Origin: a virus
Taxonomy: Duplodnaviria; Heunggongvirae; Uroviricota; Caudoviricetes
IMG/VR virus record: IMGVR_UViG_2721755658_000002
Reading direction: 5' to 3' (one strand)
Length of the DNA stretch: 34,014 nt
The notes beneath the pieces were generated by a model. The model did not search any database. It saw nothing but the letters and a program-made list of their open reading frames with translations, and was not told the origin of the DNA. Below are positions 11,329 through 32,483 of this stretch, piece by piece (the first letter of the stretch is position 1; the number at the start of each line of letters is the position of its first letter). The translations under genes were made by a program, and so were the position numbers.

Positions 11329-11724
11329 CTAACCTCGCATGTCAAAGCCAGATTTCTGAAAATCTCTGTAGACTTCCGGATTGTTGAAGGCCGGAAATTT
11401 GGCTTTATGAGCTGCGGACTTTATCGCTTCGCAATAGGCTTTATCACCGTTACTGGTAGATATTTTTAACGCCGTGCCATCCTGAGAGAATTCCATATGC
11501 AACCTGCATTTTTTCCCTTTCCAGTTATGCGGCTCATCAAGTTTGGCATTAATTGCAGCTCTGATTCCCCGCGCTTGCGCCCCCCATTCATCCTGATCAT
11601 CCCAGCGTCCTGAACTGCAACTACCTGTAGCAGTAGTTTTGTGGCAATCTGAAGGGTGTAAAGGTGTGCATCCCGCAACAAAACCGACCCAAAAAGTCAA
11701 CATAACGATTTTCTTTAATCCCAC
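11329..11724 (-). CDS. outer-membrane-type lipoprotein with divergent TolA domain-III-like C-terminal domain
   Basis: GTG start with GAGGAG SD; signal peptide MGLKKIVMLTFWVGFVAGC; C-terminal ...KKCRLHMEFSQDGTALKIS...CEAIKSAAHKAKFPAFNNPEVYRDFQ... shares the conserved pattern of its neighbour and of TolA C-terminus. Confidence 0.6.
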   Translation of the reverse strand: MGLKKIVMLTFWVGFVAGCTPLHPSDCHKTTATGSCSSGRWDDQDEWGAQARGIRAAINAKLDEPHNWKGKKCRLHMEFSQDGTALKISTSNGDKAYCEAIKSAAHKAKFPAFNNPEVYRDFQKSGFDMRG

Positions 11725-11874
11725 TTCTTGCTCCTCAATCCATTAAAATCTCAGCAATAGTAGTTGTTACGTCCGCCACTGGCTCAGAGCTGACTATCCG
11801 CTAAATTTAGCTCAGTGCCGTAGCTGTGTCAGAACAAACCTAAGCCGAAACCGTTTATTACAAAACAATAAATA

Positions 11875-12303
11875 TCAGGGTTTAAAATCCAGCACCCCAT
11901 TTTGAAATACTTTATATACTTCCGGCGAAGGGGGGGCAGGTATATCAGCATTCTTTATCGCATTCATCGCTTCACGACATAAATCGAGGTCTCCACTTTC
12001 TCTTTTAACCTCCAGTAGAAGGCCATTCGGGGCCATATGCATTCTCAGTGTACACTCTTTTCCTGAATACTTACTCGCATCCCCGAACTGTTTTTCGATG
12101 GCGCTCTTGATTTGATGGGCATACAGACGGATATCCTCACTAACATCAGAAGTACGTTCAGATGAACTCACATACTGTGTCTCTATTGCTTTATCGGAGT
12201 AATATGATGTACGGTCATGATAATTTGTCGATACAGCATCAGTGCACCCGATAATAATCCCACTAATAATCAACGTAAGAATTGATGCGCTACGAAAACC
12301 CAT
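11875..12303 (-). CDS. outer-membrane-type lipoprotein with TolA domain-III-like C-terminal domain
   Basis: Signal peptide MGFRSASILTLIISGIIIGC; C-terminal YAHQIKSAIEKQFGDASKYSGKECTLRMHMAPNGLLLEVK...IPAPPSPEVYKVFQNGVLDFKP aligns closely with recalled E. coli TolA C-terminus (...YAGQIKSAIESKF...GKTCTLRIKLAPDGMLLDIK...VYEVFKNAPLDFKP). Confidence 0.7.
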   Translation of the reverse strand: MGFRSASILTLIISGIIIGCTDAVSTNYHDRTSYYSDKAIETQYVSSSERTSDVSEDIRLYAHQIKSAIEKQFGDASKYSGKECTLRMHMAPNGLLLEVKRESGDLDLCREAMNAIKNADIPAPPSPEVYKVFQNGVLDFKP

Positions 12304-13240
12304 TTTTCCTCACATATGTCATATAGTAAAGGATTATATATACCGTTGTTTTGGACGCTCAAACAGCGAATCAGATCAAATAAAACGCACATTTGTTAAC
12401 ATTTACACAAAGTCTGCGTGGGATATTCTGAAAGAATATCCATAATGTGGAGAGAATCTATTGAAGTGCATGGTGCCGGGTGCCTCCCGGTGAACAAAAT
12501 GTTCGTGATACCTGTCGGCGACAGAAAAGGTTAATGGTATCACCCCACCGCACAGGGGGATTCACCATGCAGGAGTTTTCTTAGCAAACTCACTGCGCGC
12601 CCGGCAACTCCCAACCACATAAAATGCGGAGTTTGTGGTATTTATGCATATAACTCGCAGGAATTATCTTAAAAAACTGATGTCGATCCGGATTAAAAAG
12701 AAGCAGGTCATCATCAGATGACTGGAAAAAAGGAAAACAAAAAATACTCATCATACAGTTTTGATTGCAGGGATGAGCCTGCTATGCACAATATGCAGAA
12801 TATAAGCAAGATAAAAATATGCAGGCATATTATTTCGGATTTTGTTATTAACACAACCTTTTTAATAATCATTTGGCATACAATAAACCAGCCCAAAAAG
12901 AACCGCCTAAACAGGCGGTTGGTCAATACAAAGGATGCTTCGTCTTTATTATAGTAATCTGAGGCGTCGGGTGTCTTGTATCAGACAACATATTGTCCCG
13001 CTAAACAGCGAATTACAAACCACCCTGCAATGATCTCTCATCTCATTTTATATGAGTTGACGACATCAGGATAACGCATCATCAGCCCCTGCCAAGAAAT
13101 ATCAAAACTCCCGCCAGCAATGTGTTATCACAATATTGTAAAAAAAACACAGCACCGAAACTATAACTGGTCTCTGTTATAATTTGGAGCAGAAAGACCA
13201 GTTGCCCAACTAGCAGCATTCTCCCCTGCTTTCCTGACGT

Positions 13241-15244: not shown

Positions 15245-15400
15245 TTACTCCTCAGGTTCGTAAGCTGTGAAGACAGCGACCTCCGTCTGACCGGTTCGGA
15301 TTCGCACCTCGCAGAGGTCTTTCCTCGTTACCAGTGCCGTCACTATGACGGTTAAACAGATGACAATCAGTGCGACTAACATCGCCTTTTGCTGCTTCAT
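15245..15400 (-). CDS. hok: Hok/Gef family type I toxin (HokD/RelF-like)
   Basis: 51 aa MKQQKAMLVALIVICLTVIVTALVTRKDLCEVRIRTGQTEVAVFTAYEPEE; in-frame upstream extension to 15457 could be mok-like. Confidence 0.85.
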   Translation of the reverse strand: MKQQKAMLVALIVICLTVIVTALVTRKDLCEVRIRTGQTEVAVFTAYEPEE

Positions 15401-15880
15401 AGCCTGCTTCTCCTTGCCTTCCGGCGCGTAAGAGGCTAACCTACATGTGCAAAGCATGAAATTGGCCTCAGATTAATGTTAAGCGTCTTGCCGGACGCGT
15501 AATGTTATCTGGGGCTTTTCTCTATCTGCCTTTGGTGTTCATGCCTGAGGCAGATAGCCTCAAGCACCCGCAGCAATTCTACTTAACTCCCGTCACCTCG
15601 CCAATATAAAATCAATCAGAAAGGCGATCCATAAGAACAACAGCAAGACAATAAATTGCCATTACAGCCGCAATAGCTAGCGCACATTTGAGAACCAGCA
15701 CGACAACCTCCTGTATTGGACGTACACCAGTTCTGATAAATATGAGGCTGTCTCATCATTGATTCAATATAACTATTGGGTATAGTTTCTGTGATTTTGT
15801 TCTGTAGAAATGGAACACAACAACCAGTCACCACCAGCACTTCTTTAAATACGCCAAGTCCGACGCAAGCTAACCTTCTA

Positions 15881-15904
15881 GTCCGCTTTGAGCGAGGAGC
15901 GGAC
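15881..15904. repeat. 24-bp palindrome GTCCGCT-N10-AGCGGAC (copy 1 of 3)
   Basis: Perfect 7-bp inverted arms; same arm family and spacing as copies at 18947 and 22620. Confidence 0.6.
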
Positions 15905-16120
15905 CAAACCCGGCCAACTGACTCTTAAAGGGGCCGCAGGAATTTTTCGTCTGAACTTTCGAAGCTCCTCTCCCTGAAGACAGAAAACTTCTGTGTGCTG
16001 TGGGAATATTGAATCTTTGCCTTAGATATAAATAATTTTATCCCGCCTGAAGTTTACATTATTTTATTTATCTGTTTTTCTAAATCAGACTGCACTCCTT
16101 ACTTAAATCAGGAGCCAGTC

Positions 16121-17320
16121 ATGCCATTTGTTATTTATGTGTTTACTATCAGTGCCTTTGCGCTCGGACTCGCGGAATTTGTCCCCATTGGGCTGACAGA
16201 CGTTATGGCTCAGGGGTTGTGTGTGGGTGTGGAGCAGACCGGGGCAGCGGTTACAACCTATGCACTGGGGGCAACGTTCGCGGCACCCGTACTGTCTGCG
16301 CTGACAGCAAGCTGGAGCCGGAAAAATGTAATGCTTACAACTGCCGTTGTGTTTACTGCCGGTAGTCTGGCGGCCGCGTTTGCAGCCACATTACCTCAGC
16401 TCCTGTTAGCGCGGTTCATTGCTGGTCTGGGACACGGCCTGTTTCTGGCTGCGGCATCCAGTACCGCAGCTCGTCTTGCTGGACCGGGTAAAGCAGGCAG
16501 AGCGGTGGCTGTGGTATTTGGTGGCTTTACTCTGGCGATGGCAATCGGCGTACCGCTGAGTACATGGTTGGGGGGGGTGGTCTCATGGCGTCCAGTTCTC
16601 GGCGCTATTGCCGCTTTTGGCGCGTTCGGATTCCTTGGACTGTTGTTCGGTATGAAAGATCCCGTACGCAGCGTGCCCGGTGAACATAGTGACTCAGCAA
16701 TGCAGAATATCGGCATGCTGTTTAACCGTAAGTTGCTGGCCGGCGCGCTGGTTACGGTGCTGGCGTATGCAGGCTCGTTTACGGATTACACCTTTATCGC
16801 ACCTATTCTGACGCAGGTGACAGGGGTTACCGGAGCAACGGTGAGTCTGTTTATGCTGGTTTACGGTATTACAGCTGCGGTAGGTAATATTCTTGGTGGG
16901 AAACTTACCGACAGCATGGGGGTTAATCGTGCCAATATACTCATCATTAGCGGCATTGTTGTTGTCGTGCTTGGTATGTGGCTGCTGTCATCCTCACCGG
17001 TGAGCATGGGCATTCTGGTTGCGCTGCTGGGTATGGTGACATTTGCCGCAGTGCCGGCACTGCAGGCCCGTCTGATTGGTGTCGCTGAGCAACATGCTCC
17101 TCATGCGCATGGTGTTGCTGCCGGCCTGAATATTGCGGGCTTCAACTCAGGTATAGCGCTGGGATCAGTACTGGGCAGCATTACTATAAGCCACGCCGGT
17201 ATCGTGTATACCGGTATCAGCGGTGCGATTGTTTCTCTGCTCGGCCTGCTGTTGCTGCTTGCACAAATCCGTCGCAGCCACAGTCGTAAATTTCAACAGG
17301 TTAAAATCGTAGGCCAGTAA
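16121..17320 (+). CDS. MFS family transporter
   Basis: 399 aa, about 12 predicted hydrophobic helices, Gly/Ala-rich MFS-like composition; SD AGGAG. Confidence 0.75.
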   Translation: MPFVIYVFTISAFALGLAEFVPIGLTDVMAQGLCVGVEQTGAAVTTYALGATFAAPVLSALTASWSRKNVMLTTAVVFTAGSLAAAFAATLPQLLLARFIAGLGHGLFLAAASSTAARLAGPGKAGRAVAVVFGGFTLAMAIGVPLSTWLGGVVSWRPVLGAIAAFGAFGFLGLLFGMKDPVRSVPGEHSDSAMQNIGMLFNRKLLAGALVTVLAYAGSFTDYTFIAPILTQVTGVTGATVSLFMLVYGITAAVGNILGGKLTDSMGVNRANILIISGIVVVVLGMWLLSSSPVSMGILVALLGMVTFAAVPALQARLIGVAEQHAPHAHGVAAGLNIAGFNSGIALGSVLGSITISHAGIVYTGISGAIVSLLGLLLLLAQIRRSHSRKFQQVKIVGQ

Positions 17321-17331
17321 AGGGAGGTTAT

Positions 17332-18024
17332 ATGCTTACCCGTGAAAATATGCTTAATGGCACATTTGTCAGGGTGCATGAAGCGCTGCTCCCGGCGAAT
17401 ATGCTCTGGGACGCTGAAAAAATACGCGCATCAATGAACTCTACTCTGGAGGAGCGCCCGACGGGTGCTCCTGTCTGGATATTTGCCTACGGGTCATTGA
17501 TGTGGAATCCCGTGCTGGCGATTGAAGAAATGCAACGGGCCCGTCTGAAAGGATGGCAGCGCAGTTTCTGCATTCGTTTGATATCCGGACGAGCGACTCC
17601 TGATGTCCCCGGCAGGATGTTATCGCTCGACGAAGGTGGAATTACCGAAGGTATTGCGTTCAGACTGCCGGAATCGACTCTTATTAATGAGCTGGAAATT
17701 GTCTGGACGCGCGAGATGATAACCGGTCTTTACCGTCCGGTCTGGGCAGACGTTTCGCTAGGAAACGGTGAGGAAATTCAGGCGCTGGCTTTCGTATCAG
17801 ACAGACTGCATCCGCATTATGAACAGGACAATCTTACAGCGACCGTAGCGTTGAGCATCGCATCTGCCCGTGGAGACATTGGCACGAATGCAGATTATGT
17901 ATGGAAACTGCAGGCCACTCTGGGTGCGTTGGGAATACGGGATGATTACGTGAGTGAACTGGCCCTTGCTCTGCATGAGGCTCCCTGTAACGATAAACTT
18001 CATCAGCGAGGCGCTTCACTATGA
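17332..18024 (+). CDS. ChaC-like gamma-glutamylcyclotransferase family protein
   Basis: 230 aa with VWIFAYGSLMWNP motif and overall similarity to recalled E. coli ChaC; SD GGGAGG. Confidence 0.75.
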   Translation: MLTRENMLNGTFVRVHEALLPANMLWDAEKIRASMNSTLEERPTGAPVWIFAYGSLMWNPVLAIEEMQRARLKGWQRSFCIRLISGRATPDVPGRMLSLDEGGITEGIAFRLPESTLINELEIVWTREMITGLYRPVWADVSLGNGEEIQALAFVSDRLHPHYEQDNLTATVALSIASARGDIGTNADYVWKLQATLGALGIRDDYVSELALALHEAPCNDKLHQRGASL

Positions 18025-18902
18025 GCCATCTGAGCCATCTGCGAACGTTTCTTGAGGCCTATCGCTCTGGCTCCTTTTCAAAGGCGGCAGAACTACTGGG
18101 CATCACTCAGCCCGCGGCGTCACAGCATATCCAGTCTCTTGAGACTCTGGTTGGTAAGCGTCTGTTTATCAGGCAGGCCAGAGGCGTGACGGCAACCGAA
18201 GCTGCGGATGAGCTTGCCCGCTCAGTTTCACCCTTCATTGATGGTCTGGAAGAAAAGCTGTCCTCTTTCCGGTCAGGCTCTGTACGCGGGGGAACAATTA
18301 ATCTGGCAGGACCGCCAGATTTTATTCATTCCCGGCTTGGGACAGTAATGGCTCCACTAATGAAGGAGGGTTATCGCCTACGCTTTCATACCGGCAATAA
18401 GCAACGTATTTATTCCCTTTTGCATGACGGGAGCGCCGATCTCGCTGTTACCGCATCTATGCCTGATGACCGTCTGTACGGCTATGCACATCTACTGACT
18501 GAACGCATGCTCCTTGTTCATGCTCCCGCCATGTCAGAGATCATCGGATCAGAACCTGGTGCTGAAACGCTTGCCTCATTACCGCTGATTGCTTATGACG
18601 AAGAGTTGCCACTGATTAGAGCGCTCTGGGCCTCCATGTTTCAGAGAGCCCCTGAGATGCAGGCTACATTCACCATTCCGGATTTACGTATTATCCGCGA
18701 CTTGGTCTGTGACGGCCACGGGTGGACAGTGCTGCCGGATTATCACTGTGACAATGACCTGAAAAGTGGTCGCCTGATTTCAGTGACACCTGCAGACCTC
18801 GCTCCGACTAATCATCTTTATCTGGTCTGGAACAAAAGGACGGCTAATAACAGCCGAACCGCCTATGTTCGGGATTACATTCTTAAAACGTTTCCGCGTT
18901 GA
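18021..18902 (+). CDS. LysR-family transcriptional regulator
   Basis: N-terminal HTH LRTFLEAYRSGSFSKAAELLGITQPAASQHIQSLE typical of LysR regulators; ATGA overlap with upstream gene. Confidence 0.8.
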   Translation: MSHLSHLRTFLEAYRSGSFSKAAELLGITQPAASQHIQSLETLVGKRLFIRQARGVTATEAADELARSVSPFIDGLEEKLSSFRSGSVRGGTINLAGPPDFIHSRLGTVMAPLMKEGYRLRFHTGNKQRIYSLLHDGSADLAVTASMPDDRLYGYAHLLTERMLLVHAPAMSEIIGSEPGAETLASLPLIAYDEELPLIRALWASMFQRAPEMQATFTIPDLRIIRDLVCDGHGWTVLPDYHCDNDLKSGRLISVTPADLAPTNHLYLVWNKRTANNSRTAYVRDYILKTFPR

Positions 18903-18946
18903 TGTTTGAAACGGATGATTGGCGATGCGTATCATAAGTTACGTAT

Positions 18947-18970
18947 GTCCGCTTCTGGCACAAAGCAGAC
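18947..18970. repeat. 24-bp palindrome GTCCGCTTCTGGCACAAAGCAGAC (copy 2 of 3)
   Basis: 20/24 identical to copy 3; lies between the convergent LysR and DUF2254 genes. Confidence 0.6.
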
Positions 18971-19032
18971 GCCCACTCTCACGCGAATGCTTTGCCCTTG
19001 ACTTGCCAACAACCGTATCGCTTGCTCCGCAA

Positions 19033-20310
19033 CTATGGTTTTTTATTAGAATCTTCGCCACTAAATAAATTATAATAAATTGATTTTATTAGATATCTGT
19101 CAGAATCTATATGGTCAGCACGAGTAGCATGCTCTAATGTTTCAAATGCTAGGGTTTGTGCGGCTTCAGCAAAAATTCCAGGCCAACCCTTACTCAGCAT
19201 CGACAGTCCTTTAAGTACCCTTATCTGAATTTCCCTCATACTGGCACCATCGCGCGCAACAGGTGAGAAAAAGTCTTCAAGTAGATCGTTATTCTGAAGT
19301 GGTGCAACATGTACAGAAGGATATTTCACTTCTATTTCATCAGATTTATTCTGCGCGTAAGCGGAAAGTATACGTACACCTCTGCCAATGACATCAATGG
19401 CGGTTCCAGGATCGTTCACTGCGGGGGAAAGGGCTCGGCAGGCTATTTCGGCCATGACGCTAAGACAAAATCGGGGGTCCTGAGCAAATGAACGTACATC
19501 CGAGACAATAATCGTCTCAAGTAAATCGGTGCTGATTGATGACTCCTGGCCCTGACTCAGGTACAAAACTGGCGTGGACGGATGTATGAAACTGCCCGGC
19601 TGCGCCACGAGGTATACATGACGGGGATCATTGGTCAGCAGCTTGCTGAGTTTCACCATATCAACATATTCAACATAGCCAATCTTTTTCGGATAAACTG
19701 CAACCGTTCCTTTCGGCTGTTCATTGTTCTCAAGCCATGGATATCCGCCGAGACAGGGATTTCTTGCTCTCGCAATAAATGTTTCGATGGCCGCCTGTTC
19801 TACTTTTGCCGTTGTCTCACCAACCCTCCCCAGAGAGGTCAAATGCTGTATCCAGCGAAGCAATGTGATGAGGATTAAGGCAATGACAACCAGTGTTACA
19901 ATGAATAAAATGACTCTCCCCCTTTCTCCATAAGCTCCCATATTGAGGGCAATAATCCCTACCAGACTGAAGAGAAAAGAACCGATGAAGGTGGCCAGTA
20001 CATTTTGTGTGGTGACGTCTTCAACAACTAAACGAGTAGCTCTGGGAGTCACATTAGTAGTGGCTGAACCGTAGGCTGTGACCATGATGCTCAGCGAAAA
20101 TGTGGTCACTGCCAGCATACTCGATGCCAGTATGTTCAGAATGTTATCGACTGCTTCCGCACCAACCTTCACGGAAACCGACTCAGGTATCATTGATTTA
20201 AAAAGAATTGATAAAAGGGCCGTTATTATTGCGACAATTGCGAATAACGTTGCCCTGAACCATAGTTTTTTAAATGTCTGCTTCAGCATCCATTTCCAGC
20301 GTGAAATCAT
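19033..20310 (-). CDS. DUF2254-like predicted membrane protein
   Basis: ORF with N-terminal TM helices; start set to ATG 20308-20310 (GAGGGAA upstream); alternative ATG at 20325. Confidence 0.5.
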   Translation of the reverse strand: MISRWKWMLKQTFKKLWFRATLFAIVAIITALLSILFKSMIPESVSVKVGAEAVDNILNILASSMLAVTTFSLSIMVTAYGSATTNVTPRATRLVVEDVTTQNVLATFIGSFLFSLVGIIALNMGAYGERGRVILFIVTLVVIALILITLLRWIQHLTSLGRVGETTAKVEQAAIETFIARARNPCLGGYPWLENNEQPKGTVAVYPKKIGYVEYVDMVKLSKLLTNDPRHVYLVAQPGSFIHPSTPVLYLSQGQESSISTDLLETIIVSDVRSFAQDPRFCLSVMAEIACRALSPAVNDPGTAIDVIGRGVRILSAYAQNKSDEIEVKYPSVHVAPLQNNDLLEDFFSPVARDGASMREIQIRVLKGLSMLSKGWPGIFAEAAQTLAFETLEHATRADHIDSDRYLIKSIYYNLFSGEDSNKKP

Positions 20311-20373
20311 TCTGCATTCCCTCATATTGCAGCCGGGATAAATAAATGCCGCCTCTGTGGCGGCATGTTGCTG

Positions 20374-22377
20374 TTAACGAACCAGATGCAGGAAGTGCAG
20401 GTGTTTTTCGTACTGGTCCAGTATGTCATTAATCAGCTGTTCCTGATTCCAGCCCATTACATCATAATTTTGGCCGCCCTCTTTGAGATAGACTTCAGCG
20501 CGATAATATCGATGTTGTTCACTCTGCTGCTCATCATTATCCAGCGCAGCGAGCGCGAAGGTCGGTGAGTTATACCCGCGAAGCCTCACTTCATATATAT
20601 AATTCAGCTCGTTGCCCAAATCGACTTCAAGGCGAATACGATCCTCGGCGGCGTCACTGATGTGGCTTATCGTTCCCTGCTTGTTAAGTTCCTCCTGAAC
20701 CAGCGTCATGGCGGGTTGGATAATGTCGTCCATAAAACGTTTCACAAGAGAGCGCTTCGGCAAATACGCGATATTGCGTAACCTTCTCTGCCAGGGAATT
20801 GGGTTACGTGCAGCCGTAGGAGCAATAGTCGCCATGCTAAGGCTTTCACGCTTGGTCAAATCCCGACGCAGGGCTTTTAACAGTCCGTATATGGATATTA
20901 ATAAGATAACTGAGAAGGGCAATGCACTCGCTATCGTTACGGTTTGCAACGCACTCAGCCCCCCTGCGATCAGCAGGGCAATAGCAACAACGCCCATGAG
21001 CGATGCCCAGAAAATTCGCTGCCAGACGGGCGTGTTTGCCACCCCACCTGATGCCAGAGTATCCACAACCATTGCCCCCGAATCAGCAGACGTTACAAAG
21101 AAGACGATGACCATCGCCATTGCAATGAATGACAGCACGGAAGAGAACGGGAAATGCTCCAGGAAATTAAACAGGGCAAGCGCAACATCCTGCTGAACGG
21201 TATTGGCGAGGTCAGTGGCGCCCTGGTTCATGATGAGATAGATGGCGCTGTTTCCAAACACCGTCATCCACATGAGCGTAAAGCCGGCGGGAACAAACAA
21301 CACGCCAGTCACGAACTCACGAATTGTCCTGCCGCGGGAAACGCGTGCAATGAACATACCTACAAACGGCGACCATGAAAGCCACCATCCCCAGTATAAT
21401 AATGTCCAGCCCCCCAGCCAGTTGCTCGACTTGGGTTCATACGCGTAAAGGTTGAACGTTTTACTCACCAGTTCCGACAGATAACCACCCGTATTTTCCA
21501 CAAATGACTTCAGCAGAAGCACAGTGGGACCCAGGCACAAGACCAGCGCCAGGAGCAACACCGCCAGGCCCAGATTAAGCTCAGACAGGATGCGTATTCC
21601 CTTGTCCAGGCCGGACACCACCGAAATCGTCGCTAACCCCGTGATGACCACGATCAAAATGACCTGTACCGTTTCATTGATGGGCACGCCGAAAAGATGG
21701 TTCAAACCGGCATTCACCTGCAATACACCGTAACCCAGCGATGTTGCAACGCCAAAGACAGTGCCTATCACGGCGAAGATATCAACCGCGTGGCCTATAG
21801 GCCCGTAAATGCGATCGCCGATAATGGGATAGAGCGCAGAACGCAGCGTTAAAGGCAGACCGTGACGGTAACTGAAAAAGGCCAGAATCAGCGCCACGAT
21901 GGCATAAATTGCCCATGCGTGCAGACCCCAGTGGAAGAACGTCAGGCGCATGGCTTCCTTCGCTGCCGCAACGGTCTCTGGAGTGCCGACAGGTGGCGAA
22001 AGATAATGCATCACAGGTTCGGCAACGCCAAAGAACATCAGGCCGATCCCCATCCCTGCCGAAAAAAGCATCGCGAACCAGGAGTGGTAGCTGAAATCAG
22101 GCTGCGCATGGTCTGGGCCCAGCTTTATATCACCGTAACGTGAGAGTCCAAGGAACGTGACGCTCAGTAAAATCAGGGCCACAGCAAGTATGTAGAACCA
22201 GCTGGCATTCGTGAAGATTTGTTGCTGAAGTAGTTTAAAATTTTTGTCGGCGACATCCGGGAATACGGCGGCAAAGGCGACAAGAAGGAAAATTAGCAAA
22301 GCAGATGTAAAGAATACCGCTTTGTTAATCTGGCTTGTAGACTTCTTTGGGGTTGTATCATTTTCACTCATAATCAT
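20374..22377 (-). CDS. BCCT-family transporter (BetT-like choline/betaine transporter)
   Basis: 667 aa multi-TM; C-terminal ...QEQLINDILDQYEKHLHFLHL... resembles BetT C-terminal extension as recalled; start may be the ATG at 22371. Confidence 0.8.
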   Translation of the reverse strand: MIMSENDTTPKKSTSQINKAVFFTSALLIFLLVAFAAVFPDVADKNFKLLQQQIFTNASWFYILAVALILLSVTFLGLSRYGDIKLGPDHAQPDFSYHSWFAMLFSAGMGIGLMFFGVAEPVMHYLSPPVGTPETVAAAKEAMRLTFFHWGLHAWAIYAIVALILAFFSYRHGLPLTLRSALYPIIGDRIYGPIGHAVDIFAVIGTVFGVATSLGYGVLQVNAGLNHLFGVPINETVQVILIVVITGLATISVVSGLDKGIRILSELNLGLAVLLLALVLCLGPTVLLLKSFVENTGGYLSELVSKTFNLYAYEPKSSNWLGGWTLLYWGWWLSWSPFVGMFIARVSRGRTIREFVTGVLFVPAGFTLMWMTVFGNSAIYLIMNQGATDLANTVQQDVALALFNFLEHFPFSSVLSFIAMAMVIVFFVTSADSGAMVVDTLASGGVANTPVWQRIFWASLMGVVAIALLIAGGLSALQTVTIASALPFSVILLISIYGLLKALRRDLTKRESLSMATIAPTAARNPIPWQRRLRNIAYLPKRSLVKRFMDDIIQPAMTLVQEELNKQGTISHISDAAEDRIRLEVDLGNELNYIYEVRLRGYNSPTFALAALDNDEQQSEQHRYYRAEVYLKEGGQNYDVMGWNQEQLINDILDQYEKHLHFLHLVR

Positions 22378-22619
22378 TTATTCCATTAATTAAATCCGCA
22401 CTGGATAGAAGGTACTACCTCTCACAGAGTAGCAAAGTTCAACTGGCTATGCGGGGTTAATCGGAATGCATGGTGGAATGAGTGCCGATACAAATCATCC
22501 TATATTCTAAGGAGTTTTAAGTTACTCAGCCTGCCAATTACTGGGGCATTTAATTTGTATGATCTGTATCAAAGCTGGGATATAAGTTAAGTGAAGTATA
22601 TTAGGCACGAATTACCAGC

Positions 22620-22643
22620 GTCTGCTCTTGGCACAAAGCGGAC
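22620..22643. repeat. 24-bp palindrome GTCTGCTCTTGGCACAAAGCGGAC (copy 3 of 3)
   Basis: Direct repeat of copy 2; lies between the BCCT gene start and the replication module. Confidence 0.6.
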
Positions 22644-22711: not shown

Positions 22712-23134
22712 TCACTTCAATAAATACCGAACATCCCCCTGATAAAACGACAATATGCGCTGCATAACTTCGCTCTTCCGGCACTCGCGACAGATTATGT
22801 TTAGGCGACTGTCGTAGCGACGTATTTCTCCGTCAGGTAATGACCAGATAAGGTCCGGATCAACCACAACCGGTTTCTTCAGCTTTGCCCTCGATAATTT
22901 TTTGCGGGCATTTTGCCAGTCTTTACGAGCCTGTTCAGACGGGAATAACCCGTAGCCAGAATTGTATACATCGCCACTGGCAACCAGCTCTCTGGCCAGA
23001 ACGCTCATCAGATATCTTGTTGCCCCAGTTTTAGCTTCCAGTTGTCGTAACGTCTCGCGCCCACTCTGGCGTACGAGTTCAAGAACCTGCCCTTTAATTT
23101 TTTCCCGCTCTTCTTGTGTAAAAACTTTTGCCAC
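22712..23134 (-). CDS. hypothetical protein of the replication module
   Basis: 140-aa ORF with GTG start preceded by AGGAGG; follows the replication initiator-like gene. Confidence 0.35.
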   Translation of the reverse strand: MAKVFTQEEREKIKGQVLELVRQSGRETLRQLEAKTGATRYLMSVLARELVASGDVYNSGYGLFPSEQARKDWQNARKKLSRAKLKKPVVVDPDLIWSLPDGEIRRYDSRLNIICRECRKSEVMQRILSFYQGDVRYLLK

Positions 23135-23174: not shown

Positions 23175-24245
23175 TTACCCCCTGAAGCCCGGCGGAATTT
23201 CGTTATCCGGTTCAGAAATATGATTCACACAACGCTGGTTGTTCGTGCCGCTTACCGGGAGCAACCAGGGGTTCTCAAAATTCCGGTCCGGTCCAAAAAA
23301 CGTCGTCGCTCGCTGAACAAATTCCGTTCCCGTTTTCCCGGTAGCCGCCAAGTATCTTGCGTAACGCCTCACGCCATCCAGCATGGCCTCTGGTGACACC
23401 CCCTCGCGTAATCTGGCCTTCCAGGCACTGAAAGCGGATTTCTTCGGGTTTGCCCCAGCACGCAACGGGTACTCCCGCCAGACCTGTTCGAACACATCCG
23501 GATAATCCACTCGTCCCACAGACTGCCCGGTGTTTTCCGGGACTACCCGATCGGCTTCCCGCTGAATGGCGGAATCGGCTTCAGGCTGCTGCAGTTGGTG
23601 TGATTGCTCCGCCCTTGCGGTCATCACCTGCTGCACAGCGCCCGAATCGGCTTTCAGCGCATACGCTGAATCGGCTTCCGGTGTCGTGCCTGCTGGCTGA
23701 CCAAGATTGACGGTCTGAACATCCCCTGCCTGGTTCGTGGCGTTTTTTACGCCATGGACCATAGTGTTTTGATCTTCTTGATCTGTATCTTTATCTGTAT
23801 CTTTATCTGTCGTGACTCGTCGTGACATGTGCGTGACATTTCGTGACGCGCCGTGACAATCGCCATTTTGTTCCCGCTTTCTTTCCCTCTCTCGCTGCGC
23901 CCTCTTGCGCTCTGCAGGAGATTTTGCGGTTTGCGAAATATTGCCGTTGTCCTCTTTAAGCACCTGGCGTTTTTCCCATCCAGTGATTAAATCACCATCA
24001 AGTACCCGCCCCTGCATCGTCTGCAAAATTGAATCAATTACCTCTTCTGTCACGTCGAGCGCACTTGCCAAATCTTCTGTCGTGACATCAATGTGACCTC
24101 GCGTGACATTTCGTGACGCGCTCACCAGGAGGTGGATATACACTGCCATCACTGTTGCAATTGGCTGTCCTGACACCCTGGCAATTGTTCGCCACTTAGG
24201 GTCATTTGGCATGTCATGCCATAATCTGAGCCAGGCGTTAGCCAT
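23175..24245 (-). CDS. putative replication initiation protein (YdaU/O-like) containing internal iteron arrays
   Basis: Start ATG 24243-24245 preceded by AGAGGTGAG; position after ydaS/ydaT; two clusters of CGTGAC direct repeats inside the ORF, as for lambda ori inside O. Confidence 0.5.
   Translation of the reverse strand: MANAWLRLWHDMPNDPKWRTIARVSGQPIATVMAVYIHLLVSASRNVTRGHIDVTTEDLASALDVTEEVIDSILQTMQGRVLDGDLITGWEKRQVLKEDNGNISQTAKSPAERKRAQRERERKREQNGDCHGASRNVTHMSRRVTTDKDTDKDTDQEDQNTMVHGVKNATNQAGDVQTVNLGQPAGTTPEADSAYALKADSGAVQQVMTARAEQSHQLQQPEADSAIQREADRVVPENTGQSVGRVDYPDVFEQVWREYPLRAGANPKKSAFSAWKARLREGVSPEAMLDGVRRYARYLAATGKTGTEFVQRATTFFGPDRNFENPWLLPVSGTNNQRCVNHISEPDNEIPPGFRG
23811..23857. repeat. 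iteron array 1: five CGTGAC repeats at 10-11 bp spacing
   Basis: CGTGAC at 23811, 23821, 23832, 23842, 23852. Confidence 0.6.
24081..24117. repeat. iteron array 2: CGTGAC / TGTGAC repeats at 10-11 bp spacing, plus an inverted GTCACG at 24050
   Basis: CGTGAC at 24081, 24102, 24112 and TGTGAC at 24092. Confidence 0.6.
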
Positions 24246-24316
24246 ACTCACCTCTTTTGATACCGAATCTTTTTACTCACAAATTGCCGGAAGTGATCCG
24301 GTATGAATATTGCGAG

Positions 24317-27146: not shown

Positions 27147-27422
27147 GTGGCTTCTGTTTCTATCAGCTGTCCCTCCTGTTCAGCTACTGACGGGGTGGTG
27201 CGTAACGGCAAAAGCACCGCCGGACATCAGCGCTATCTCTGCTCTCACTGCCGTAAAACATGGCAACTGCAGTTCACTTACACCGCTTCTCAACCCGGTA
27301 CGCACCAGAAAATCATTGATATGGCCATGAATGGCGTTGGATGCCGGGCAACAGCCCGCATTATGGGCGTTGGCCTCAACACGATTTTACGTCACTTAAA
27401 AAACTCAGGCCGCAGTCGGTAA
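27147..27422 (+). CDS. insA: IS1 InsA
   Basis: Identical translation to copy A InsA. Confidence 0.93.
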
Positions 27423-27844
27423 CCTCGCGCATACAGCCGGGCAGTGACGTCATCGTCTGCGCGGAAATGGACGAACAGTGGGGATACGTCGGGGCTAAAT
27501 CGCGCCAGCGCTGGCTGTTTTACGCGTATGACAGGCTCCGGAAGACGGTTGTTGCGCACGTATTCGGTGAACGCACTATGGCGACGCTGGGGCGTCTTAT
27601 GAGCCTGCTGTCACCCTTTGACGTGGTGATATGGATGACGGATGGCTGGCCGCTGTATGAATCCCGCCTGAAGGGAAAGCTGCACGTAATCAGCAAGCGA
27701 TATACGCAGCGAATTGAGCGGCATAACCTGAATCTGAGGCAGCACCTGGCACGGCTGGGACGGAAGTCGCTGTCGTTCTCAAAATCGGTGGAGCTGCATG
27801 ACAAAGTCATCGGGCATTATCTGAACATAAAACACTATCAATAA
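27341..27844 (+). CDS. insB: IS1 InsB reading frame
   Basis: Identical translation to copy A InsB. Confidence 0.92.
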
Positions 27845-32086: not shown

Positions 32087-32281
32087 ATGAGATATGACAA
32101 TGTTAAACCATGTCCATTTTGTGGTTGTCCATCAGTAACGGTGAAAGCCATTTCAGGATATTACCGAGCGAAGTGTAACGGATGCGAATCCCGAACCGGT
32201 TATGGTGGAAGTGAAAAAGAAGCACTCGAAAGATGGAATAAACGAACCACTGGAAATAATAATGGAGGTGTTCATGTATAA
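32087..32281 (+). CDS. ralR: RalR (Lar) restriction-alleviation protein / type I toxin
   Basis: 64 aa MRYDNVKPCPFCGCPSVTVKAISGYYRAKCNGCESRTGYGGSEKEALERWNKRTTGNNNGGVHV. Confidence 0.85.
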   Translation: MRYDNVKPCPFCGCPSVTVKAISGYYRAKCNGCESRTGYGGSEKEALERWNKRTTGNNNGGVHV

Positions 32282-32483
32282 AATTACCGCCACTATTGAA
32301 AAGGAAGGTGGCACTCCTACTAACTGGACAAGATATTCAAAATCTAAACTAACGAAATCAGAATGCGAAAAAATGCTCTCAGGTAAAAAAGAAGCAGGCG
32401 TTTCCAGAGAGCAGAAAGTAAAACTGATAAATTTTAATTGCGAGAAACTTCAGTCCTCGAGAATTGCATTGTATTCAAATTAA
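32274..32483 (+). CDS. ydaC: YdaC
   Basis: 69 aa from ATG 32274 (MYKITATIEKEGGTPTNWTRYSKSKLTKSECEKML...), SD GGAGGTG; overlaps ralR 3' end by 8 nt. Confidence 0.7.
   Translation: MYKITATIEKEGGTPTNWTRYSKSKLTKSECEKMLSGKKEAGVSREQKVKLINFNCEKLQSSRIALYSN

Follow-up and report, generated by a model that had tools for sequence, protein, structure and literature searches.

Why are the edges of two cargo operons in one prophage marked by copies of the same short palindrome? The prophage in question is IMG/VR virus record IMGVR_UViG_2721755658_000002 (Caudoviricetes), 34,014 nucleotides that we refer to as a whole as the window; it is a Rac-like lambdoid prophage of Escherichia coli with recET, kilR and sieB, and with intR/ttcA at its right end. 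An earlier note on this DNA had drawn attention to three 24-bp palindromes of the form GTCYGCT-N10-AGCRGAC and had offered two explanations: recombination or insertion junctions of independently acquired cassettes, or shared regulatory or RNA-processing sites. We are confident that the three copies are conserved cassette boundaries where cargo is exchanged, and that they are neither terminators nor products of chance. They are probably double-stranded core sites for a recombinase, part of a cassette-exchange system akin to integrons or pdif modules, whose catalytic step we infer.

How cargo and anti-phage defence genes pass so rapidly from one mobile element to another that is not related to it has yet to be settled. 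An analysis of the P2/P4 hotspots from 2026 points out that homologous recombination needs flanking homologous genes and is unlikely between phages and plasmids, and it leaves unresolved the mechanism by which cargo is transferred between unrelated elements (PMC13586616).

Three sites frame two cargo cassettes

The three palindromes are not a chance finding. The pattern matches the window three times, against a mean of 0.01 matches over 100 dinucleotide-preserving shuffles, none of which reached three. P1 (15881-15904, plus strand; GTCCGCTTTGAGCGAGGAGCGGAC) has perfectly complementary arms and reads GTCCGCT TT GAGCGA GG AGCGGAC. P2 (18947-18970; GTCCGCTTCTGGCACAAAGCAGAC) and P3 (22620-22643; GTCTGCTCTTGGCACAAAGCGGAC) both lie on the minus strand, where they read GTCTGCT TT GTGCCA GA AGCGGAC and GTCCGCT TT GTGCCA AG AGCAGAC, respectively. 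These two are identical at 20 of 24 positions and have TGGCACAAAGC in common, a likeness that had been noted before. We call sites with the centre GTGCCA type A and those with GAGCGA type B; P2 and P3 are of type A, and P1 is of type B and inverted relative to both.

Read on the minus strand, in the direction of the early operon, the window presents the replication initiator (23175-24251), the DUF977/LygF gene, P3, a BCCT transporter, a DUF2254 gene, P2, an LysR-ChaC-MFS group on the opposite strand, P1, about 300 bp of conserved sequence, sok and hokD, followed beyond hokD by DUF1367, YbcO and a Q-like protein. Two conserved backbone anchors enclose the hotspot. On the replication side this is the DUF977 gene (LygF or Ren-like; 22712..23134, minus strand), and on the opposite side the hokD/sok segment (15246..15880, minus strand), which includes the roughly 300 bp upstream of sok and ends at P1.

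Between the anchors the units are stacked as A> X A> Y B<, the arrowheads giving the direction of each site. Cassette 1 (18971..22619, minus strand, 3649 bp) lies between A sites in direct orientation and consists of the BCCT transporter gene (20374-22377) and the gene for the DUF2254 membrane protein (19033-20325). Cassette 2 (15905..18946, plus strand, 3042 bp) lies between inverted A and B sites and holds genes for an MFS transporter (16121-17320), a ChaC-like gamma-glutamylcyclotransferase (17332-18024) and a LysR regulator (18021-18902). Each site joins two units. P3, located between DUF977 and BCCT, 68 bp past the DUF977 stop codon, has its left arm in the phage backbone and its right arm in the BCCT-DUF2254 cassette; P2, between DUF2254 and LysR, takes its left arm from that same cassette and its right arm from the MFS-ChaC-LysR cassette; and P1, which precedes the MFS gene and faces hokD/sok, combines a left part from the hokD/sok backbone with a right part from the MFS-ChaC-LysR cassette.

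Similarity to other prophages ends at the sites

The earlier note had placed the palindromes at the edges of the cargo operons and had proposed an alignment with related prophages that carry other cargo. Breakpoints mapped by megablast in 5,426 complete E. coli genomes coincided with the palindromes. On the DUF977 side, the alignments of thousands of prophages with different cargo start at 22620 or 22621, the outer edge of P3. On the hokD side, such alignments end at 15895-15904, within P1 or at its edge. Two breaks fall at P2 (18945-18951): one at 18945, against a prophage in which ParA and two unknown genes replace MFS-ChaC-LysR, and the other at 18951, against a chromosomal acuR-DUF2254-BCCT island of 94% identity. 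At P1, loci L002 and L003 keep GTCCGCTTTGAGCGA and diverge after it.

Both cassettes recur elsewhere as discrete units. Cassette 1 (cluster C0 of the inter-site segments described below) was found in 20 loci with the constant ends AGAGCAGAC...GTCTGCTTT, and it is also present on a pNDM plasmid and in a prophage beside a different neighbour. Cassette 2 (cluster C3) has constant ends in 10 loci.

In about 970 E. coli genomes, a non-prophage island contains the BCCT-DUF2254 pair with 94% identity. On the O104:H4 chromosome (locus L004), the island site downstream of DUF2254 is a decayed A site, GTATGCT TT GTGTCA AA AGCAAAC, with an IS3 upstream. The NDM plasmid NZ_CP085076.1 (pNDM_2_P21_SE1_04.20) carries cassette 1 in an array together with a recombinase gene that is discussed below, in the order relBE, A site, BCCT/DUF2254, A site, unknown gene, B site, recombinase, A site, unknown gene, B site, IS26.

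The same element bounds about 50 unrelated cassettes

From IMG/VR we gathered 80 loci through DUF977 and more than 110 through the site pattern. Across about 280 related loci, the 24-bp element bounds some 50 unrelated cargo cassettes: clustering of the inter-site segments yielded 66 kinds, about 50 of them unrelated cargo units. The distinct DUF977-to-hokD intervals number 95 and span 1.1 to 6.9 kb, the longer arrays having internal sites. Each interval starts with a site 68-85 bp past the DUF977 stop codon, in which GTCCGCT TT GTGCCA is kept and the next two nucleotides and the arm vary; each ends with a site in which the first arm and two nucleotides vary and TCGCTC AA AGCGGAC is kept. An 'empty' hotspot, with a single site between DUF977 and hokD, was not seen among these 95 arrays. 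In the 133 phage loci that possess both DUF977 and hokD, all 204 sites fall inside the cargo interval and none outside, in a scan confined to these loci. The scenario that the earlier note had named as refuting its proposal, a REP-like motif scattered at random positions, is not seen in them.

A typical unit has the form [A> cargo B<], with two sites of different centres in inverted orientation, and units are commonly chained as A> X B<, a linker of 15-18 bp, and A> Y B<. The linkers are semi-conserved (e.g., CTTYAGCTCAGT). Relative to the sites, cargo genes can point either way, and multi-gene cassettes with their own regulators occur. Family libraries were searched with the window's own proteins; the products of the arrays, read by eye and from record annotations, include the defence-like AbiH, KAP-type NTPase, SIR2-like and ParA proteins as well as transport and metabolic functions. 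We considered a transposon with target-site duplication and rejected it: the edges of the A...B units show no such duplications, and an apparent 8-bp 'duplication' around the BCCT cassette is the shared site centre.

The arrays occur in unrelated backbones. In P2-like phage, the sites bound cargo between the tail-fibre-assembly and tail-sheath genes, a position that we take to be the classical P2 Z/fun hotspot. Other site-bounded cargo adjoins umuDC, lysozyme or NinB/NinG genes or is found in chromosomal islands and on the pNDM plasmid, and the cultured phage mEp460 carries sites as well. In K-12, the 49 kb of Qin and DLP12 hold only two sites, both flanking flxA.

Three of the P2-like myovirus loci, L100 (439-2240), L117 and L131, display arrays of the chained form, A> X B<, linker, A> Y B<. 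The flxA cassette of K-12 Qin (NC_000913.3, about 1645981-1646995) has the ends GTCCGCT TT GTGCCA GG AGCAGCC and TTCCGCT TC TTGCTC TT AGCGGAC; the annotated open reading frame (ORF) ydfV overlaps the first of these sites, and relBE-hokD adjoins the cassette.

A fourth site of the window surfaced when two arm mismatches were permitted. This variant (11771-11794, minus strand) reads GTCAGCT CT GAGCCA GT GGCGGAC, with 12 of 14 arm positions matching and the rare centre GAGCCA. It separates two adjacent cargo genes of the TolA-C-terminal kind (11329-11724 and 11875-12303), which are placed between the Q-like gene and the lysis genes. The hokD-nin-Q segment of the backbone ends in this same site in nine other loci (clusters C13, C14, C58, C60 and C61), and a second cargo hotspot may therefore use the same kind of site.

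Site anatomy

The element has a 7-2-6-2-7 layout: an arm GTCCGCT, two variable base pairs, an invariant asymmetric centre of 6 bp, two further variable base pairs, and the inverted arm AGCGGAC. There are two centres, GTGCCA and GAGCGA. Logos of 148 distinct sites around the recombinase gene give GTCCGCT-NT-GTGCCA-NN-AGCGGAC for type A and GTCCGCT-NT-GAGCGA-NN-AGCGGAC for type B. When sites were detected by their arms alone (at least 12 of 14 arm matches), the central 6 bp were exactly GTGCCA in 159 and exactly GAGCGA in 134, together 293 of 338 sites. Thus, the supposed loop is the most conserved part of the element. The earlier description as a palindrome with a loop of ten free nucleotides therefore has to be refined for the loop, the central 6 bp of which are one of two invariant words.

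Owing to its asymmetric centre, each site has a direction. Inverted arms around an asymmetric centre of 6-8 bp are the generic core layout of tyrosine-recombinase sites, and the sites described here display it. Centres and arms are identical in Yersinia, Providencia and Idiomarina. In 513 sites, the arm 3' of the centre is conserved more strongly than the one 5' of it.

Two resemblances to other signals were set aside. P2 and P3 contain TGGCAC, reminiscent of a sigma-54 promoter, but by eye the GC of the -12 element is off the required spacing. A boxA/nut-like word, CGCTCTTA, is present in a small number of B sites, whereas the majority have CGCTCAAAG.

Junctions between cassettes

Where do neighbouring units meet within a site? 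When a unit is found beside different neighbours, its own arm and dinucleotide stay with it, and only the centre is common to both partners. The BCCT-DUF2254 cassette (99.4-99.8% identity among copies) adjoins at least five different cassettes, and in each case the two units meet at the site centre. Following this cassette, a constant GTCTGCT TT GTGCCA leads into a dinucleotide and arm that are specific to the neighbour: GA AGCGGAC, GG AGCGGAA, GT AGCGGAC, TG AGCGGAC, TA AGCGGAA or AA AGCGGGC. These data bear out the suggestion that the palindromes are recombination or insertion junctions of independently acquired cassettes.

Other units behave alike. In a composite array, unit C12 ends in ...GTCCACT CC TCGCTCA and continues either with A AGCGGAC, into the hok backbone, or with T AAGGGAC, into the module that encodes the recombinase. 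Unit C41 starts with TA AGCGGAA, which follows GTCTGCT T TGTGCCA when the neighbour is BCCT and GCAGCC C TGTGCCA when it is the recombinase module. A relBE flank ending in ...GTCCGCT TT GTGCCA runs into flxA in K-12 and into BCCT on the plasmid. Because the cassette-specific dinucleotides stay with the cassette in all junction comparisons made, the exchange is placed in the central 6 bp.

The window itself holds a matching pair. P3 (GTCCGCT...AGCAGAC) and P2 (GTCTGCT...AGCGGAC) are reciprocal hybrids, and swapping their halves restores two perfect palindromes. Their arm variants are as expected if a circle with the site GTCTGCT...AGCAGAC had integrated into a resident GTCCGCT...AGCGGAC. We use complementarity of cassette ends in this local sense for P2 and P3 only, since the rule holds for just 4 of about 45 cassettes.

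A candidate recombinase

If these are recombinase sites, which enzyme would act on them? A 709-bp module in the composite array encodes a 200-aa protein that matches the Pfam family Phage_integrase at 7e-18. In an alignment of 14 homologues, R51, K79, H148, R151, H174 and Y183, the catalytic set of tyrosine recombinases, are invariant. More than 8000 homologues with 78-97% identity are spread across Gammaproteobacteria, from Escherichia to Idiomarina and Pseudoalteromonas. The gene is present in 932 of the 5,426 E. coli genomes, at many loci and with constant module ends, and in related prophages it lies inside the same DUF977-hokD hotspot. The genes of the window's backbone had also been considered for this role (DUF977, replication initiator, YbcO, DUF1367 and Q-like); none encodes a recombinase, and arrays exist in unrelated backbones.

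The association of this gene with the sites is regular. We surveyed its flanks in one genome per species, in 74 loci with the gene located. TCGCTC stands 47-50 nt ahead of the start codon in 62 of the 74 species, and GTGCCA with a recognisable arm 26-27 nt past the stop codon in 56; the flanking B and A sites lie at fixed distances in 49-62 of 74 species. Further canonical sites are present in 60 of the 74 loci, and 1.18 Mb of sequence around the gene contain 154 sites, compared with 0.5 in shuffles. Given these flanking B and A sites, the gene occupies the 'linker' position, B<[recombinase]A>, with both sites facing outwards.

No specific NCBIfam model fits the protein. Its best match is recomb_XerA_Arch (site-specific tyrosine recombinase/integron integrase), with 53.9 bits where the cut-off is 220; the scores with the XerC and XerD models are far below their cut-offs, and those with models of tyrosine-type DNA invertases are weak (24 versus 222 bits).

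More distant relatives are carried by plasmids of alpha- and betaproteobacteria; with 45-63% identity, such proteins are encoded on plasmids from Sinorhizobium, Agrobacterium, Phaeobacter, Cupriavidus, Acetobacter and Vibrio. A 14-bp inverted repeat, ATACTCAAATCTCC...GGAGATTTGAGTAT, is conserved about 15-45 nt ahead of the recombinase start codon in about 70 species (loci L207-L286), where it overlaps both the ATG and the ribosome-binding site; it may control translation or transcription of the gene. Past the stop codon there is a terminator-like hairpin with compensatory changes in Colwellia and Pseudoalteromonas.

A possible route of cassette exchange

Were the sites to work as recombinase cores, two recombinase monomers would bind the arms and strand exchange would occur where the 6-bp centre begins and ends, making each site a hybrid of halves from the two joined units. 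Identical centres would be required, so that A would pair with A and B with B. Recombination of A with A followed by B with B between two replicons, be they phage, plasmid or island, would swap the intervening unit, and A with A on the same molecule would lead to excision or integration of a circle. In the window, P3 and P2 would in this way release a 3,673-bp (3.67-kb) BCCT-DUF2254 circle. As the window is devoid of the recombinase gene, the enzyme would have to act on its array in trans, by analogy with what is assumed for attC arrays that have no integrase.

More tentatively, and a little short of what we would call probable, we propose that all these observations belong to an undescribed two-site platform, in which a minimal 200-aa recombinase and two heterospecific 24-bp core sites, inverted around each cargo unit, would swap defence, transport and metabolic cassettes, prophage arrays being enzyme-less reservoirs serviced in trans. 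The reach of such a platform, equally tentative, would encompass lambdoid and P2-like prophage hotspots, plasmids including pNDM, and chromosomal islands throughout Gammaproteobacteria.

Several points weigh against recombinase core sites. The recombinase gene is absent from the window and essentially absent from cultured phage genomes, and among the 5426 E. coli genomes it is found in 932 as against 4250 with the P3 flank. Its link with the sites is only a genomic association. Complementary cassette ends, expected if all cassettes had passed through a circle, are found in only 4 of about 45 (C0, C7, C41 and C57). Junctions within the shared 6-bp centre would also arise from homologous exchange in a short conserved element. 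Finally, the model gives no account of how an A...B unit, with inverted sites and different centres, first forms around a new gene.

Alternative explanations

The main alternative to recombinase sites is portable homology. On this account, the 24-bp elements and the B-linker-A units of about 66 bp are used by RecET (Rac), Red or RecA to shuffle cassettes, and the recombinase is a passenger or a selfish gene that hunts for sites. There is a precedent in the PeSL elements of T4-type phages, proposed to shuffle cassettes through homologous recombination. RecE and RecT are encoded by the window's own prophage, most arrays are devoid of the recombinase, the linkers are semi-conserved, and crossovers in short homology would produce hybrid sites and junctions inside a shared stretch just like those observed. 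However, portable homology leaves unexplained why the arms are inverted around an invariant asymmetric centre of 6 bp and why there are exactly two such centres. Nor does it explain a recombinase gene flanked by B and A sites at fixed distances in some 70 species, Idiomarina and Colwellia included, and the cassette-specific dinucleotides, which stayed with their cassette in every junction compared, speak against it as well. We therefore regard this explanation as unlikely.

A second alternative holds that the palindromes are regulatory hairpins, that is, non-canonical terminators, RNase processing sites or insulators that separate cargo from the phage early operon. Their intergenic positions at operon ends would suit such a role, and P1 folds stably as RNA whichever strand is taken (-14 to -15 kcal/mol, z about -3.5 to -3.9). 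P2 and P3, in contrast, are on some strands no more stable than shuffled sequence (z -0.4 to -1.4). The earlier note had observed that these are not ordinary terminators, and indeed no T run follows any of the three copies and a terminator and promoter scan of the window calls none of them; an Rfam scan of the whole window returned sok, RalA and STnc100 only, with no match at the palindromes. Across 513 sites, all seven arm pairs are complementary in only 82 (16%), and the arm changes comprise 983 one-sided cases and 97 double ones, compared with 100 double changes expected under independence. As the arms vary independently, with no excess of compensatory changes, base pairing is not the conserved feature; what is most conserved is the unpaired centre. 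Moreover, cargo genes run in either orientation relative to the sites. The suggestion of shared regulatory or RNA-processing sites is thus not borne out, and regulatory hairpins are an improbable explanation.

Could the sites instead be operators through which a dimeric transcription factor of phage or host co-regulates the cargo modules? Dyad symmetry with conserved half-sites and the LysR regulator in cassette 2 would be in keeping with this idea. Yet some 50 cassettes with no relation to one another are flanked by these sites, in mobile elements and species that are themselves unrelated; the sites mark the edges of units rather than keeping a set distance to promoters, and genes beside them run both ways; and neither the asymmetric invariant centre nor the hybrid composition of the sites has a role in such a model, which we consider highly improbable. 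That the elements are dispersed repeats of the repetitive extragenic palindrome (REP) or miniature inverted-repeat transposable element (MITE) kind, or leftover transposon ends with no present function, is very improbable, for although they are short palindromic repeats with many copies across enterobacterial genomes, they are confined to the cargo interval in the 133 phage loci scanned, number only the two flxA-flanking copies in Qin and DLP12, have no visible target-site duplications at unit edges and are conserved in sequence from E. coli to Idiomarina.

Relation to known systems

Among known systems, the one postulated here would work most like the pdif modules of Acinetobacter and like integrons. 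In pdif modules of Acinetobacter plasmids, XerC/XerD sites flank resistance and other gene modules. As in our arrays, short inverted core sites bound the modules, which are chained, share a site between neighbours and occur in many replicon contexts; modules with inverted sites chained via linkers of 15-18 bp, and the same cassette in different arrays, are what we found. However, pdif and dif sites have an 11-6-11 layout with one arm for XerC and one for XerD, whereas the sites described here are unlike dif (by eye, against the dif consensus) and have the same word in both arms. While pdif relies on the host XerC/XerD, here there is a dedicated 200-aa candidate recombinase, direction is given by two alternative 6-bp centres, and the setting is mainly prophage hotspots.

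With integrons, our system shares a tyrosine recombinase gene next to a special site, unrelated cassettes with imperfect palindromes, many enzyme-less arrays (CALIN) and defence-like cargo. Integron attC sites, however, have a GTTRRRY core and act as folded single strands of 57-141 nt, whereas ours are 24-bp duplex-type cores with no GTTRRRY and no arm covariation. Integron cassettes are co-oriented and mostly promoterless single genes, unlike the cassettes here, which lie in both orientations and are often multi-gene with their own regulators. With 200 aa and a score well below the recomb_XerA_Arch cut-off (53.9 versus 220 bits), the candidate is not an IntI-type integrase, and its gene is located between two outward-facing sites rather than at one end as in integrons.

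Two further groups of tyrosine recombinases invite comparison. Rci of the R64 shufflon, a protein of about 384 aa, only inverts pilV segments, in contrast to the exchange of unrelated cargo between replicons seen here. The shufflon site sfx has the core GTGCCAA (PMC4176322). It resembles our sites in that this core is asymmetric and similar to the type-A centre GTGCCA, in the better conservation of one arm and in the presence of sites in both orientations. Only the core is common, as the sfx right arm TCCGGTNNNTGG does not appear in our site logos, and the resemblance may be a coincidence. FimB and FimE are, like the candidate, about 200 aa long and consist of the catalytic domain only, but they invert a single promoter segment and have no cassette arrays, and the candidate scores far below the family cut-offs.

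Extra genes between conserved phage modules are also known as morons, which are defined by a promoter and terminator of their own, and from PeSLs, which combine an early promoter with a stem-loop and move by homologous recombination. Both are similar to the present case in their position, in their short stem-loop-like borders and in being shuffled among related phages. The element described here differs in having the architecture of a recombinase site, in being common to plasmids and islands, and in its link to a recombinase gene. All told, the system lacks the defining features of pdif modules, integrons and shufflons alike. A literature search by sequence strings and by concept, incomplete in its coverage so that an earlier description is possible, returned no description of the sites or of the recombinase, and this small tyrosine recombinase is apparently undescribed.

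If the sites are indeed served by such an enzyme, a portable site and a trans-acting recombinase would explain the exact borders of the hotspots, the identical cassettes in phages, plasmids and islands, and the stacking of cassettes. They would also provide a sequence rule that delimits cargo units in enterobacterial prophages, flxA of K-12 Qin being one example, a route to new cargo and defence genes, and possibly a small recombinase/site pair for engineering by cassette exchange.

Other features of the window

The three RNAs found in the window by the Rfam scan all match above their gathering scores. The sok RNA (15395-15569, minus strand) adjoins hokD (15246-15401), the RalA antitoxin RNA (32280-32458, minus strand) adjoins ralR, and the small RNA STnc100 is located at 12414-12600 on the minus strand. 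Within the conserved stretch between P1 and sok, there is an ORF of 29 codons, VLVLKCALAIAAVMAIYCLAVVLMDRLSD (15612-15701, minus strand), with AGGAGG ahead of it; its product is hydrophobic and, read by eye, resembles a small membrane or toxin peptide.

The window contains two copies of an ORF pair (91 aa and 167 aa), at 1-698 and 27147-27844. From their sizes, which fit InsA and InsB, these are probably two copies of IS1, one of them inside the early-left region of the prophage.

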